This document shows positions 39,264-43,031 of a stretch of 64,000 nucleotides of DNA, one piece after another; positions within the stretch are counted from its first letter, which is position 1; each line of letters begins with the position of its first letter. Below the pieces are notes generated by a model. It was not told the origin of the DNA, did not search any database, and saw only the letters and a list, made by a program, of their open reading frames with translations. Source of the stretch: Promethearchaeota archaeon (GTDB lineage: Archaea; Asgardarchaeota; Lokiarchaeia; Sigyniarchaeales; SOKP01); assembly GCA_016840165.1 (NCBI GenBank), contig JAEOSU010000027.1, positions 39,549-103,548 of the forward strand, in the 5' to 3' direction. The translations under genes and the position numbers were made by a program.

Positions 39264-40364
39264 TTAGATCCTTCTTTTACGCCATACTAAGTAAATTAGT
39301 ACGATGACGACTGCAATGATCGCCAATAGGATAAACAATATGATAAGATTAAATTCTACCATAAAAATATCTTCATTTAATAATCCTAAACTGTTAAAAT
39401 CCATAAGAAGCTTAAATGCATAATATGATGCTGATATCGAGGATAATCCTTGAACAGTTCCCCCAAAAAGATTACTGAAACCACCATCTTCGAAATTTTG
39501 ATGATTTAAAACCCATACTAAAGTTGCGGCTTCATTTAATTGAGTGCTGTCTAATAGTTTAATTGCACCTACACAATAAAAGGTACTACTAAAGAGAGTT
39601 GATTCTGAGAGAAGCCCAGCTTTATATCCCCCATAATTAGCATAATTATCACTATCACTATTATAAAAGGATTTAAAGTAATTTAATGTTGCCGTTCTGT
39701 TTTCTAAATCATTTAAATCACCTATCTGGTCAATCAAATAAACGGCTAGGAACGTTGTTAGTTGAGATGAATCTAGAGTACTATTTCCTCCATAACCTCC
39801 ATCAGAATTATTGCAAGATAATATCCAATTTTTAATTGAAGTAAAATTAAGTTCTTCGTTCAAATATGTTTTAATTTCATAGACAAAATACGTAGAGGTC
39901 ATATCTGCTGAAGAGGTAGAATTATCAGAAGCATAACCCCCCTCGCTTTGCTCAGTTTGATTTAGATATTCCGAGATCTTAGTTTCTAAACTTGTATCCA
40001 TTGTAGCGTCCAAAATGTCCAAAGATTTCACAAGATAATAGAGATCATATAATTTTATAACACCCTCAGTGAACATATTCTCGATCGCAGTTTCTAAATT
40101 TTCTTGAAATAGGGAGATATCTACTTTAGTTTCCGGACCAATTTGATAGATATCGTAATAGTCAATGATCTCTAACGAATAGGCAGTATCTTGATAGGAA
40201 GATCCAAATCTTTCATTTTCTACTTGATTTTCAAAAAGGAAGTCAACTAAATAAGATTGTCTTGTTTTTGCTAATGCAATTGGGGTTATCAATATGAAAA
40301 TGATTGCAGTAGTAATTATGAAAGCAGTGATTCGAGTTTTTGATTTCAATCTAAAAAACCTCAA
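39264..40364 (-). CDS. Secreted, membrane-anchored prenyltransferase/squalene-cyclase repeat protein
   Basis: Signal peptide, QSEGGY/NSDGGY/QNFEDGGF repeats, C-terminal TM plus RKRR. Confidence 0.82.
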   Translation of the reverse strand: MRFFRLKSKTRITAFIITTAIIFILITPIALAKTRQSYLVDFLFENQVENERFGSSYQDTAYSLEIIDYYDIYQIGPETKVDISLFQENLETAIENMFTEGVIKLYDLYYLVKSLDILDATMDTSLETKISEYLNQTEQSEGGYASDNSTSSADMTSTYFVYEIKTYLNEELNFTSIKNWILSCNNSDGGYGGNSTLDSSQLTTFLAVYLIDQIGDLNDLENRTATLNYFKSFYNSDSDNYANYGGYKAGLLSESTLFSSTFYCVGAIKLLDSTQLNEAATLVWVLNHQNFEDGGFSNLFGGTVQGLSSISASYYAFKLLMDFNSLGLLNEDIFMVEFNLIILFILLAIIAVVIVLIYLVWRKRRI

Positions 40365-40506
40365 GCGAGTTTTAACTAAGTTTTAAGTTTTTAAAATTTA
40401 ACTTGTAATTAAAAATTAACGATAAATATAGAGAATAATCGAAATTTCACAATTAAAGATGAATTGCTGCAATTCATTTTTTATATAAGTAAAGATAGAA
40501 AAATAC

Positions 40507-42033
40507 TTAGAAAATTTCGCTAATATCTTTATATAACACAGCACTATTTTCGATAAATTGTTCATGAGTAATGAATAGATTTTGAAAACTCGGAAGACTT
40601 CCCAAAATTGCGGCACCATTAAATATCGCATATTGAAGATTTTCTGGTACGTAAAACTTGATAAGTGTATCTGTTGACTTGTAATATCCTGAAAACTCAC
40701 GAGCGGGTTTTGCTTTTTTGATCACTCCAGTGGGGAGATCTTCTAAACTCGGAGGCTCTAAAGATTTCCCACAATATGGACAAAAGATTGAAGTTTCATC
40801 TACTATTTCTTTATTGCAATGGGGACATAATAATTTACCATTTACTTTTTTAACTTTTTTAGGTTCCACTTTTGGTTTAATTGGTAATTCAGGTAATACA
40901 ACTCTTCCTCCACATGAAGGACAAAATTCCTTTCCGTCAGTGAGGTCCACTAACACCCCACAGTGAGGACAAGTATCTTTACTTTTCTTTGCTACTTCTT
41001 TCGCTTGCATAGTTAATTTCTGACTAACTGTCGAGATCATTTCTTTTGGTTTTGGAATTTTTCCTAATTGCGGTAAAATCTTGTTTAGTTCTACTCGTAA
41101 ACGTTCCTCAAAACCAGAATATGATACATTACCCCCTGAAATGACAATATGTGATAATAAATCACTCCAATAATGATCATCAATCCCTTTGAGAGAAGCA
41201 ATAATGGCTTCAGGTATATTCATCATTGTATAACCAATAAGTTGGGGATTAAAAAGTACTTCAGGAGCTTCATGAAATATATAATTGGGGATTTTAATAT
41301 TTGAACCATCTGGCATGGCAAAGCTAAAAGAATCTTTTACTTTTGGAGGGTTATCAGGGTCTATTGCAAAATAACAATTTTTTTCCTTTATATCCTTAAT
41401 TATTTCATCCACAGCGGAGGATTCTATATTAATACCTTCTCGCATTAACAGGTTTTTTAAGTGCTGATTAATATCGGTACCGGCAAGAGGTAATTTTTGT
41501 ACCGCCTGATCGACCAACTCTCCGTTGATAATGGGACAAATCCAAGTTATACCATCTCCACTTTCAATGACTAGTCCTGTGGTTAAACCAACGCTGAAGA
41601 TTGAAAGTATTGGTGTAGGAATCATAATCAAGCTTTTAACTCTATGTGTTTCAAATAAAACTCGAGCAATATATTCCTTTGTCTCTTTCTGGACAAATGG
41701 TTGTTCTGTATATAATAAAGGATAATCAGAAAGATTGGGGATTCGTAGAAGGGAATAAAAACAATAATTAAGAATTTCATAATAATCATTCCAATCCATA
41801 ATTGCCCCACGGTCAATTGGATATTTTATTTTTAGCACACCTCGCATTTTTGCCGCATCTGAGCCGATATATGTGTTTCTTGCACTTACATCGACCATTA
41901 CTGATTTATATTTCTCCTTTCCCGTCATTGTTGGAAATACAAATCGAGGACTTGGTTCACCAGCAAATCCAATTTTAGTATATGCGGATCCAATGTCTAA
42001 AATCACCGGGGTGCCTGGGAGAGGGATTGCCAT
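40507..42033 (-). CDS. Actin-related protein (Asgard actin family) with double zinc-ribbon insertion
   Basis: DIGSAYTKIGFAGE, LKIKYPI, LYTE, LFET, ESGDG, LAG, IKEK, PDG, APEVLF, SGG, GAAILGSL all align with actin; insert carries four CxxC. Confidence 0.95.
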   Translation of the reverse strand: MAIPLPGTPVILDIGSAYTKIGFAGEPSPRFVFPTMTGKEKYKSVMVDVSARNTYIGSDAAKMRGVLKIKYPIDRGAIMDWNDYYEILNYCFYSLLRIPNLSDYPLLYTEQPFVQKETKEYIARVLFETHRVKSLIMIPTPILSIFSVGLTTGLVIESGDGITWICPIINGELVDQAVQKLPLAGTDINQHLKNLLMREGINIESSAVDEIIKDIKEKNCYFAIDPDNPPKVKDSFSFAMPDGSNIKIPNYIFHEAPEVLFNPQLIGYTMMNIPEAIIASLKGIDDHYWSDLLSHIVISGGNVSYSGFEERLRVELNKILPQLGKIPKPKEMISTVSQKLTMQAKEVAKKSKDTCPHCGVLVDLTDGKEFCPSCGGRVVLPELPIKPKVEPKKVKKVNGKLLCPHCNKEIVDETSIFCPYCGKSLEPPSLEDLPTGVIKKAKPAREFSGYYKSTDTLIKFYVPENLQYAIFNGAAILGSLPSFQNLFITHEQFIENSAVLYKDISEIF

Positions 42034-42093
42034 GGTTAATCAATTTTTTTTTAATATTTAAGACTATATTTTCTTCTATATAATTATCAAAAT

Positions 42094-42528
42094 TTAAGTG
42101 TTAGTATCCTTTAAAAATTTAAATAATCGTTCTAAAATCGATTGTTTCGTAATTAAGCCAATTAATTCTTTATTGGGATTAACAACGGGTAATCTTTCAA
42201 TATTTTTGGTCATCATTTTTTCTATAGCCATTTCAAACGTATCTTCTTGTTGAAGGGTTATGGTATCTGAAGTCATAAGATCTTTAACTCGAGTATTTGG
42301 AGAATCAAGATTTGTTGCGAATCGGGCTAACCGTATATCTCTTTGAGTAATAATTCCAACGATCTGTTTATCTCTACTATTATTAACGACTGGTAATCCT
42401 CCAACATTCTTTCTCAACATAAGCCTTTCTGTTGCACTTATTTTTTCATCGGGAACTGTGAAGTAAGGATCACGAATCATAAATTCCGAAATGTTGATTT
42501 TACCCAATGATCGCTTATTTTCTCCCAT
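42094..42528 (-). CDS. CBS domain pair protein
   Basis: GLPVV...GIITQRD; RLPVV...GLITKQS. Confidence 0.93.
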   Translation of the reverse strand: MGENKRSLGKINISEFMIRDPYFTVPDEKISATERLMLRKNVGGLPVVNNSRDKQIVGIITQRDIRLARFATNLDSPNTRVKDLMTSDTITLQQEDTFEMAIEKMMTKNIERLPVVNPNKELIGLITKQSILERLFKFLKDTNT

Positions 42529-42620: not shown

Positions 42621-43031
42621 TTACTGAATCGTAAGGGTTTTTTTTAAATTAGTCTCGATGGCTTCTAATTCAGAACGTAAATTATTGAAAGTATTAAGTA
42701 GAAAGTCCCCCCATTCATTCAATTTTATCCAACCACCTCCTCCTGGTCCACCACGTGCTGTTTCCACCGGTGAAATACCTGTTCTTTTCTCTATCCTCCT
42801 TAAAATATTCCAAGCATATTTGTATGAATACCCACATTCTTTTGCAGCTTGGGTTAGCGATTTTAAACCTTTAGATGTTTCTGATTTAATATTTTCAAGT
42901 AATTTGGCCCACCCCGAGCCTAATATATTCGCAGATTCGTTATCTTGAAATTCAAGCCATATTTTTATCCCAAACCCCACTTTAGATTTATACTTCTCTA
43001 GATCCACATCTTCAATAGATTTTCTCTTCAT
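42621..43031 (-). CDS. ModE-family winged-helix regulator
   Basis: KIWLE...LG.G...SLTQAAKECGYSYKYAW...RGGPGGGG. Confidence 0.9.
   Translation of the reverse strand: MKRKSIEDVDLEKYKSKVGFGIKIWLEFQDNESANILGSGWAKLLENIKSETSKGLKSLTQAAKECGYSYKYAWNILRRIEKRTGISPVETARGGPGGGGWIKLNEWGDFLLNTFNNLRSELEAIETNLKKTLTIQ

Follow-up and report, generated by a model that had tools for sequence, protein, structure and literature searches.

The question raised by this locus is what an actin-family protein with two zinc ribbons built into its fold does in cells of the Lokiarchaeia. The window, which is the whole 64,000-nucleotide stretch of DNA that was analyzed, contained an open reading frame of 508 codons plus a stop (40507..42033; this and all other features described here are on the minus strand) that encoded a 508-aa member of the actin family (Pfam Actin, 3e-73), which we call ZnR-Arp. 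The Pfam Actin profile (PF00022) scored 247.1 bits against a cut-off of 27 and matched in two pieces, residues 9 to 323 and the C-terminal end, that flanked an insert. The N-terminal part of the actin core (residues 1 to 322; 41068..42033) comprised subdomains 1, 2, and 4 and most of subdomain 3, and the C-terminal part, as delimited by alignments (residues 458 to 508; 40510..40662), had a family-specific end, S-E-I-F/L. The AF2 model had a mean pLDDT of 82.6, with most of the core above 90, and Foldseek matched its four-subdomain actin fold to 50 solved actins with TM(target) values of 0.88 to 0.92. The closest solved relative by sequence was the Hodarchaeales 'HC1 actin' (9wc4; 1e-73).

Alignments to solved actins ended at query residues 322 to 326 and restarted at residue 458. 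Because the actin numbering continued across this query gap (328/328 in 8trm), about 130 to 135 residues are truly inserted. The insertion point followed the equivalent of actin residue 325/326, and the results showed that the loop in question connects helix K to strand 15 in subdomain 3. The insert, of about 135 residues, contained two CPxC...CPxC zinc ribbons. An earlier note on this DNA had proposed a double zinc-ribbon insert in an actin fold, and the Pfam actin and zinc-ribbon profiles, together with the alignments to solved actins, bore this out. The range that it gave (nucleotides 40666-41067) corresponded exactly to residues 323-456, the flanking strings (RLRVELNKILP and IKFYVPEN), the Lys/Pro-rich linkers, and all four cysteine pairs were as first read, and its placement of the insert in a subdomain 3 loop adjoining the longitudinal contact was supported.

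The cysteine pairs were C355/C358 (CPHC) and C371/C374 (CPSC) in zinc ribbon 1 (residues 352-380; 40894..40980) and C403/C406 (CPHC) and C418/C421 (CPYC) in zinc ribbon 2 (residues 402-425; 40759..40830). Over residues 355-425, the profiles Zn_ribbon_3 (PF13248), Zn_Ribbon_1 (PF13240), and DZR (PF12773) scored 39.2, 33, and 33 bits against cut-offs of 27, 25, and 27.3, respectively, and the best stretch for ribbon 2 was residues 403-425 (Zn_ribbon_3 and Zn_Ribbon_1). Three tethers accompanied the ribbons. Tether 1 (residues 323-351; 40981..41067; pLDDT below 50 for 333-347) had a conserved start, L-G-x-[IL]-P-x-P, followed by a variable part that was Lys-rich in the window's family. Tether 2 (residues 381-401; 40831..40893; pLDDT below 50 for 381-392) varied in length (10 to 24 aa) and sequence. 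Tether 3 (residues 426-457; 40663..40758; pLDDT below 50 for 428-442 and about 78 for 445-457) ended in a conserved P-A-x-E-F that led back to the core, with E446 in 94% and F447 in 82% of 51 sequences. When the insert was folded by itself, the pTM was 0.28 and both ribbons formed small beta ribbons with pLDDT values of 74 to 81. Modeling and sequence comparison showed the insert as two putative zinc ribbons, predicted to fold independently, on three flexible, fast-evolving tethers.

The two ribbons were not equally conserved. In an alignment of 51 sequences that reached down to 36% identity, the four cysteines and G359 of ribbon 1 were invariant; the cysteines of ribbon 2 were 92% conserved and were missing in three one-ribbon forms. 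By this cysteine conservation, the double-ribbon feature is far beyond chance. Ribbon 1 was the sole ribbon retained in Ca. L. ossiferum and in family f4. Identity within the genus was 0.80 for ribbon 1 and 0.83 for the core, and it was 0.64 for ribbon 2, 0.45 to 0.54 for the tethers (0.54 for tether 1), and 0.74 for segment 444-457. By this measure of sequence identity, the conservation of ribbon 1 matches that of the actin core. The origin of the module was also considered. A word-indexed search of limited sensitivity for a stand-alone donor of the double ribbon returned no protein of 47 to 151 aa at E <= 0.001. A membrane-targeting amphipathic helix in tether 1 was rejected, as the hydrophobic moment was not above that of shuffled sequences (mean z, -0.36), and no conserved amphipathic helix was found in the tethers. 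A type I membrane protein from the same genome had ribbon-2-like modules on its cytoplasmic tail.

Could the insert have come from chimeric assembly or mobile insertion, or be a functionless, decaying remnant? Beyond the unusual architecture, this idea could draw only on genome G196, which had an extra, insert-less paralog and so indicated that the core can exist without ribbons. The architecture, however, was shared by more than 300 homologs. It recurred in hundreds of independent assemblies, three of them closed genomes, and an independent metagenome contig that spanned the entire gene differed by 23 substitutions and had no gaps. Together with the conservation of ribbon 1, these observations refuted the idea, and we give it practically no chance. 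The earlier note had named a chimera, or orthologs free of the insert, as the outcome that would overturn its reading; this outcome was excluded by the homologs, the family-wide genomes, and the independent contig. Full-length matches were present in 127 of the 134 genomes of the window's family, the whole gene was found at 62-91% identity in more than 100 genomes, and the remaining three families of the order had weaker insert-bearing forms. The insert-bearing form was absent among about 245 other Asgard genomes searched. Our results showed that the gene truly belongs to the actin family and is under purifying selection, and, by sequence search, ZnR-Arp is confined to one order of Lokiarchaeia. 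Two cultured strains carry it, namely, Ca. L. ossiferum (UYP44711.1, with one ribbon) and P. syntrophicum MK-D1 (QEE17409.1).

The earlier note had called the product an actin-related protein rather than a bona fide actin, and the phylogeny agreed. ZnR-Arp formed its own clade (SH-aLRT, 100) outside the Lokiactin clade. Lokiactin, represented by L001 and L002 in the window's own genome and by the related 'HC1 actin', shares with ZnR-Arp the fold, the Pfam family, the V-M-V of the D-loop, and the glycines of the phosphate-1, phosphate-2, and adenosine motifs. ZnR-Arp differs in that it is only 38-39% identical to L001 and L002, has lost Q137, H161, and D154, carries the 135-aa insert, has a different C-terminus, and is found in one order only, whereas Lokiactin occurs across the phylum at 70-100% identity. 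Within the family, identity was 51-91% for ZnR-Arp and 97-100% for Lokiactin, and on these sequence comparisons ZnR-Arp evolves much faster. The sister clade of ZnR-Arp (SH-aLRT, 93) was an L003-type Arp of 371 aa from the same genomes, although both branches at this node are long and the grouping may be an artifact. The L003-type protein has likewise lost Q137 and H161 and has E in place of D154, and the loop that holds the ZnR-Arp insert is extended in it by a short Lys-rich stretch, but it lacks zinc ribbons and is only 32% identical to ZnR-Arp. The best 150 library matches included a centractin cluster (P0243) besides actins, and neither Arp2 nor Arp3 appeared among the ten clusters that were named. 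Some homologs have the automatic JGI name Arp1/centractin, an assignment that we rejected, as the tree placed the centractin-named representative P0243 in a starred clade among eukaryotic actins and away from ZnR-Arp.

The catalytic positions were altered (41542..41616, by alignment): actin Q137, D154, and H161 corresponded to T140, E157, and W164. Among 51 family members, the Q137 equivalent was T in 29, S in 20, and A in 2 and was never Q, the D154 equivalent was E in 49, and the H161 equivalent was W in 37 and H in 2. The Lokiactins of the same genome retained Q, D, and H at these positions. The alignments therefore showed that the residues actin uses for ATP hydrolysis have been lost from the predicted ZnR-Arp active site. 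The nucleotide-binding motifs were a different matter, with D11/G13/K18, G156/G158, G301/G302, and E214 invariant in 51/51 members. The S14 equivalent was S in 37/51 and E or Q in 14/51, and the D157 equivalent was D in 34/51; because the phosphate-1 Ser is Glu or Gln and the phosphate-2 Asp varies in distant families, nucleotide binding may not be universal.

To which part of an actin filament, if any, might such a protein bind? The D-loop equivalent (residues 40-53; 41875..41916; pLDDT below 50 for 44-51) had the length of the eukaryotic actin loop and kept the central V-M-V. It was 0.93 conserved within the family, and the family consensus was 58% identical to the genome's own Lokiactin there compared to 36% overall. 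For faces defined by small residue sets based on F-actin structures, identity between the family consensus and Lokiactin was 0.60 at residues 61-65, 0.43 in the barbed-face hydrophobic cleft (0.87 within the family), 0.29 at lateral-contact positions, and 0.21 in barbed-side subdomain 3 (for example, R290 is replaced by W). Only 9% of the C-terminal 11 positions were identical to Lokiactin, and 79% were conserved within the family. The earlier note had proposed a non-filament Arp that may cap or nucleate. As the pointed-face elements appear to have been kept and barbed-side subdomain 3 appears to have been remodeled, we infer that a barbed-end terminator or adaptor is favored over a nucleator.

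The reading that we prefer, with a probability of roughly 0.4, is that ZnR-Arp docks on Lokiactin as a non-hydrolyzing adaptor or terminator subunit, with its ribbons recruiting a partner. Within the Lokiactin cytoskeleton it would be a non-dynamic subunit. The D-loop and subdomain 2, which make up its actin-like pointed face, would dock into the barbed-face cleft of Lokiactin, either at the barbed end of a filament or on a monomer, and the remodeled barbed side of ZnR-Arp would present the two ribbons as a reach-out module. This module would recruit or anchor a protein partner, probably near the membrane, with ribbon 1 as the putative essential module and ribbon 2, which is missing in some lineages, as an accessory. 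The mean net charges of the ribbons (-1.9 for ribbon 1 and +0.9 for ribbon 2) favor protein rather than nucleic acid as the ligand.

It is also possible, though we consider it doubtful, that ZnR-Arp is a polymerizing subunit that forms stable filaments of its own or co-polymerizes along Lokiactin, with the ribbons projecting as cross-linking or anchoring modules. The retained D-loop, the retained length of the hydrophobic plug, and the retention of much of the barbed cleft are consistent with this possibility, and the loss of the hydrolysis residues would result in static filaments. The insertion site corresponds to actin K326/I327, and we take K326 and K328 to face outward on F-actin; the insert therefore need not block polymerization, and, with the barbed cleft fairly conserved, polymerization or co-polymerization is possible. 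The title of PDB entry 9zbp ties K326/328 to tropomyosin binding. Nevertheless, the barbed side of subdomain 3, which makes the longitudinal contact, was the most diverged surface, the lateral-contact positions were poorly matched to Lokiactin, and the fast evolution of the family is not what is seen for Lokiactin. Expression data argue in the same direction: UYP44711.1 was an RT-qPCR target beside Lokiactin in L. ossiferum, where the Lokiactin transcript was several-fold above those of the other actin homologs (PMC9834061). The supplementary files of PMC9834061 made no mention of UYP44711 or NEF87_000996. Finally, the main text of a Lokiactin co-immunoprecipitation study in L. ossiferum (PMC13716822) reported enrichment of profilin, five gelsolins, and an ARF GTPase and named no ARP, which counts against polymerization with Lokiactin and also against our preferred reading of docking on it.

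The genes around ZnR-Arp brought up two further ideas. Upstream of it were a gene for a 144-aa CBS-pair protein (42094..42528; Pfam CBS, 1.8e-27) and a gene for a 136-aa ModE-N-domain-like winged-helix protein (42621..43031; NCBIfam TIGR00637, 4.3e-13, which is below the cut-off). The ModE-N-like HTH gene was upstream of the Arp gene on the same strand in 13/13 loci of family f1 and 4/5 loci of family f3, including those of L. ossiferum and MK-D1, and the CBS gene lay between the two in most genera of the window's family. A sigma-70 promoter and terminator scan gave nothing above shuffled sequences, and the sigma-70 model is not relevant for archaea.

The HTH neighbor is an argument for a non-cytoskeletal Arp, in which, as in eukaryotic nuclear Arps, the actin fold would be a scaffold and the ribbons would bind nucleic acid or a regulator, such as the ModE-like protein. 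The Lys-rich tether 1 (charge of +3 to +10 in the window's family) and the weak profile matches of the ribbons, none of which reached the cut-off, to RNA polymerase subunit P and TFIIB-type ribbons fit this idea, as does the lost catalysis, which is typical of scaffold Arps. We consider it improbable, however. The basic character of tether 1 was gone in distant families, and DNA binding by the ribbons is disfavored because they are net acidic or neutral. Foldseek of the insert alone returned nothing below E 0.05 and hence no significant match to nucleic acid-binding ribbons; since the fold search yielded only generic ribbons (Nop10, RanBP2/Nup153 ZnF, RpoP, L40e, and ArnA), it did not discriminate. 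The D-loop, which has no known role beyond actin-actin and actin-partner contacts, was among the best-conserved parts, and the HTH neighbor is more simply explained as a local regulator.

The downstream neighbor (39264..40364) encoded a 366-aa predicted surface protein with a signal peptide, a prenyltransferase-type alpha/alpha toroid (Pfam PF00432, 3e-25), a C-terminal membrane helix, and a short basic tail; no NCBIfam match to a C-terminal sorting signal was found in it. It was the same-strand downstream neighbor of the Arp gene in 18/20 loci from four GTDB families, down to 26% identity of the surface protein. This arrangement and the ribbon-2-like modules on the tail of the type I membrane protein argue for the membrane context of docking on Lokiactin. 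A more specific version, which we regard as a long shot, is that ZnR-Arp provides the cytoplasmic half of a link across the membrane, in which its actin-like face would cap or hold Lokiactin ends and the acidic ribbon 1 would grip the conserved basic C-terminal tail (R-[I/L/V] end) of the adjoining surface protein. Strict co-occurrence of the two proteins was rejected. Relatives of the surface protein were present in Asgard families without ZnR-Arp, and in one 92%-complete genome the Arp was present and the neighbor was undetectable; thus, the surface protein is not an obligate partner. Genome G147 lacked the Arp, the neighbor, and the flanking genes, so this region was probably unassembled. 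Genomes G233, G165, and G152 were also without FolD.

Known systems offer partial parallels to ZnR-Arp. Eukaryotic Arps (Arp3 and the nuclear Arp4 to Arp9), which we compare with it by design and not by any shown orthology, also use the actin fold as a specialized subunit and have lineage-specific insertions with family-specific functions. In the nuclear Arps, ATPase activity is lost or weak, and to our knowledge no characterized Arp carries zinc ribbons. Two inserts of Arp3 have complex-specific functions, according to a passage of PMC4947185 that cites Liu et al. 2013. The closest working analog for what the insert may do is CdpC of Haloferax volcanii, a protein with two CPxCG zinc ribbons and a disordered linker, in which one ribbon region is membrane-associated and the other binds FtsZ1 (bioRxiv 10.64898/2026.07.16.738847). 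In CdpC, two small zinc ribbons on a disordered linker act on a cytoskeletal polymer, as the ZnR-Arp insert may do; CdpC, however, stands alone as a protein and its target is a tubulin homolog, whereas the ribbons of ZnR-Arp are built into an actin-fold subunit.

No paper describing the ZnR-Arp architecture was found in the literature searched, and it seems to be undescribed. The only Lokiactin regulators studied so far are profilins and gelsolins, and 'ARPs' have been named in trees with no known function. ZnR-Arp is a distinct Arp lineage whose predicted design, an actin fold without hydrolysis residues plus tethered zinc ribbons, is testable. As both cultured Loki-type strains have it, antibodies, tagging, co-immunoprecipitation, and in vitro polymerization assays are feasible now. 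If ZnR-Arp caps or anchors Lokiactin filaments, archaea would have evolved actin-fold filament-end or anchoring subunits independently of Arp2/3. Should it truly be linked to the surface protein, ZnR-Arp would be the first candidate for a cytoskeleton-to-envelope connector in Asgard archaea. PMC9834061 and PMC13716822 describe a Lokiactin cytoskeleton that drives protrusion dynamics and crawling. If the transmembrane link is true, it would join the cell surface to the actin skeleton and serve as a primitive anchor for adhesion or protrusion, of relevance to the actin-dependent crawling that has been reported in L. ossiferum.

The minus-strand ORF at 40507-42033 (508 codons) encoded an actin-related protein interrupted by a double zinc ribbon, referred to here as ZnR-Arp. 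Pfam matched Actin (PF00022) in two pieces (247 bits, cut-off 27), and between them PF13248 (39.2 bits), PF13240 (33 bits), and DZR PF12773 (33 bits) each scored above the family cut-off within residues 355-425. Among solved structures, the Hodarchaeales 'HC1 actin' (9wc4) matched best (1e-73), ahead of ordinary eukaryotic actins. The structure alignments broke off at query residues 322-326 and restarted at 458 with the actin numbering unbroken; thus, about 135 residues were inserted after the equivalent of actin M325/K326. The earlier note had described this insert from the sequence, and its coordinates and flanking strings proved exact, as did its four CxxC pairs (C355/358, C371/374, C403/406, and C418/421), which confirmed the observation.

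The earlier note had also considered that the insert might be chimeric or missing from orthologues, which was ruled out. The Actin plus zinc-ribbon architecture recurred in more than 300 database proteins (504-512 aa; 62-89% identity) from independent Asgard assemblies, and a single 10.4-kb contig from an unrelated study (one run) spanned 40300-42200 with 23 substitutions and 0 gaps. Among 29 species of the window's genus, the amino-acid identity of ribbon 1 was 0.80, compared to 0.83 for the actin core; the values were 0.74 for the P-A-x-E-F re-entry segment, 0.64 for ribbon 2, and 0.45-0.54 for the three tethers. The independent homologues, the gapless contig, and the core-like conservation of ribbon 1 excluded a chimera or junk sequence.

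When 400 genomes of the phylum were searched, full-length matches (query 1-508, 51-91% identity) were found in 127 of the 134 genomes in the window's GTDB family. Three checked genomes among the remaining seven also lacked the neighboring FolD gene, and a fourth lacked the flanking genes, so these four absences were probably assembly gaps. The order's three remaining families had weaker homologues that also carried the insert (36-47% identity; ORF length, 487-566 aa). Beyond the order, the top matches (about 1e-70 to 1e-80) reached query residues 5-324 only and were Lokiactins wherever checked. Exact-sequence look-ups identified orthologues in the closed genomes of Ca. Lokiarchaeum ossiferum (UYP44711.1), Promethearchaeum syntrophicum MK-D1 (QEE17409.1), and Ca. 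Harpocratesius repetitus (MCF2140085.1). Most forms had two ribbons, and only ribbon 1 was present in L. ossiferum and family f4. NCBI names these proteins just 'zinc ribbon domain-containing protein', and a literature search on Asgard/Loki actin or ARP plus zinc ribbon found no description of the architecture. Rodrigues-Oliveira et al. (PMC9834061) included UYP44711.1 as one of the three 'ARPs' covered by their actin tree and RT-qPCR; their paper mentions no zinc ribbon and reports Lokiactin expression several-fold above that of the other actin homologues in L. ossiferum.

In a 97-row tree (IQ-TREE quick search, LG+C20), whose rows included no named Arp2, Arp3, or Arp4-10 sequences, the ZnR-Arps formed a single clade with an SH-aLRT of 100 and a stem length of 0.52. 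The f4 forms, which have one ribbon, diverged first, and because the one-ribbon L. ossiferum protein was nested among two-ribbon forms, its placement suggests secondary loss of a ribbon. The sister group was the third Arp of these genomes (SH-aLRT 93, short branch), which shared the D154 to E change with ZnR-Arp; this placement is tentative because both branches are long. Lokiactins, eukaryotic actins, and the centractin-named representative were on the opposite side of the tree, so the automatic JGI label 'centractin' for ZnR-Arp was unsupported.

Several other actin-family genes were observed. In the window's own genome, the third Arp (L003:1480-2595, minus strand, contig C15; 371 aa) had lost Q137/H161, carried the D154 to E change, and was lengthened by a short Lys-rich stretch in the loop between helix K and strand 15, the site of the ribbon insert in ZnR-Arp. 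The same genome carried two Lokiactin genes (L001:1474-2619, plus strand, contig C77; L002:1426-2616, plus strand, contig C54); one Lokiactin was 97-100% identical throughout the GTDB family, and the second was 83% identical with a longer N-terminus. A sister-genus MAG (G196; 88% complete, 7% contamination) encoded, beside a normal ZnR-Arp, a 385-aa paralogue of 46% identity (L096:3818-4975, minus strand, contig C37), the only insert-less one among 154 genomes of the order. An 11-residue linker replaced the whole ribbon insert, the exit and re-entry motifs typical of the family were retained along with its changed catalytic site, and the adjoining gene encoded a 379-aa Ras/Rab-like small GTPase. 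In another Asgard family, proteins of 571-754 aa (L089, L090, and L091; genomes G398/G399) had an actin-like start matching Lokiactin from about residue 75-82 and were extended C-terminally by several hundred residues; P0129 and P0130, two library representatives of 742-761 aa, may resemble them.

Across 51 ZnR-Arp family members, the nucleotide-binding residues D11, G13, K18, G156, G158, E214, G301, and G302 (actin numbering) were invariant. The Q137 equivalent was T, S, or A in every member, the D154 equivalent was E in 49, and the H161 equivalent was W in 37 and H in 2; the own genome's two Lokiactins retained all three residues. In distant families, Glu or Gln replaced the phosphate-1 Ser, and the phosphate-2 Asp was variable. 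Because the hydrolysis residues were gone and these phosphate-loop residues varied, selection on ZnR-Arp does not preserve an ATPase cycle. An AlphaFold2 model built from the 51-sequence alignment had a mean pLDDT of 82.6 (core mostly >90), and its Foldseek matches were actins only (TM 0.88-0.92). The ribbons had pLDDT values of 74-81, and values of <50 were confined to the tethers (333-347, 381-392, and 428-442). Folded by itself, the insert gave a pTM of 0.28 and is therefore predicted to have no fixed arrangement. The insert would thus resemble two beads on a string, with a conserved exit (L-G-x-[IL]-P-x-P) and re-entry (P-A-x-E-F).

Residues known to make contacts in F-actin were located in the alignment, and the family consensus was compared with the own-genome Lokiactin; the following values are only suggestive. 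Identity to Lokiactin was 0.36 over all mapped positions (within-family conservation, 0.82), 0.58 in the D-loop (0.93), 0.60 in subdomain-2 residues 61-65 (1.00), 0.43 in the barbed-face cleft (0.87), 0.21 in barbed-side subdomain 3 (283-294 and 320-326; 0.71), and 0.09 at the C-terminus (0.79). The D-loop was equal in length to that of eukaryotic actin and retained the central V-M-V. This asymmetry is suggestive of a pointed face that may still plug into the Lokiactin barbed face, and of a barbed side, where the insert sits, that differs from Lokiactin's. The insertion point was equivalent to K326/I327 of actin. K326 and K328 point outward in F-actin, and the PDB title of 9zbp connects K326/K328 to tropomyosin. 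An insert at this outward-facing position need not abolish polymerization, which keeps alive the idea that ZnR-Arp is a co-polymer, although we consider it rather unlikely. Lokiactin co-immunoprecipitation in L. ossiferum enriched one profilin, five gelsolins, and an ARF GTPase (PMC13716822); the main text of that study names no ARP, which is mild evidence against an abundant, stable ZnR-Arp-Lokiactin complex.

ZnR-Arp lay in a single-strand gene order of a ModE-N-like winged-helix protein (42621-43031, minus strand), a CBS-pair protein (42094-42528, minus strand), ZnR-Arp, a 366-aa surface protein (39264-40364, minus strand), FolD, and a 152-aa ORF. The 136-aa winged-helix ORF was similar to the DNA-binding N-terminal domain of ModE, a molybdate regulator, down to the G-G-P-G-G-G-G turn, and lacked molybdate-binding domains. 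The surface protein had a signal peptide, a prenyltransferase-type alpha/alpha toroid, a C-terminal membrane helix, and a basic tail of 5-8 residues that usually ended in R-[I/L/V]; a search against known C-terminal sorting domains gave no match. Across four families (the window and downstream ORFs L035-L054), the short basic cytoplasmic tail almost always ended in R/K plus I, L, or V, and the protein evolved fast (48-52% identity inside the genus). Its gene came next after ZnR-Arp at 18 of 20 loci in the four families, including those of L. ossiferum, MK-D1, and Harpocratesius, where the surface protein was just about 26% identical. The winged-helix (HTH) gene preceded ZnR-Arp at all f1 loci and four of five f3 loci. 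Intergenic gaps were 42-338 nt, and the genes may be co-transcribed. The link between ZnR-Arp and the surface protein was not obligate: relatives of the latter occurred in Asgard families without ZnR-Arp, and one 92% complete genome (G276) had ZnR-Arp and no detectable neighboring surface protein.

The ribbons were net acidic or neutral (mean net charge, -1.9 for ribbon 1 and +0.9 for ribbon 2) and the Lys-rich tether 1 was limited to the window's family, features that speak against nucleic-acid binding. A search of tether 1 found no conserved amphipathic helix, Foldseek with the insert returned only generic ribbons, all at non-significant scores, and a search for a stand-alone homologue of the double ribbon found none. 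Modules resembling ribbon 2 (CPxC..I/L.D....FCPxCG) were seen elsewhere in the own genome: a 208-aa protein (L114:1138-1764, plus strand, contig C15) had two at its C-terminus, and a 233-aa type I membrane protein (L115:1471-2172, minus strand, contig C92) had one on its cytoplasmic tail.

The closest working precedent for the tethered ribbon pair is CdpC of Haloferax volcanii, in which a disordered linker separates two CPxCG zinc ribbons; one is membrane-associated, and the second binds FtsZ1, whose assembly it promotes (bioRxiv 10.64898/2026.07.16.738847). ZnR-Arp is securely an Arp lineage of its own, restricted to one order, in which the catalytic site is dead and a double zinc ribbon is carried on tethers. 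That it is a scaffold outside the cytoskeleton seems improbable. With a probability of about 0.4, ZnR-Arp would act on Lokiactin as a non-dynamic adaptor or terminator, and its ribbons would recruit a partner that is probably membrane-proximal.
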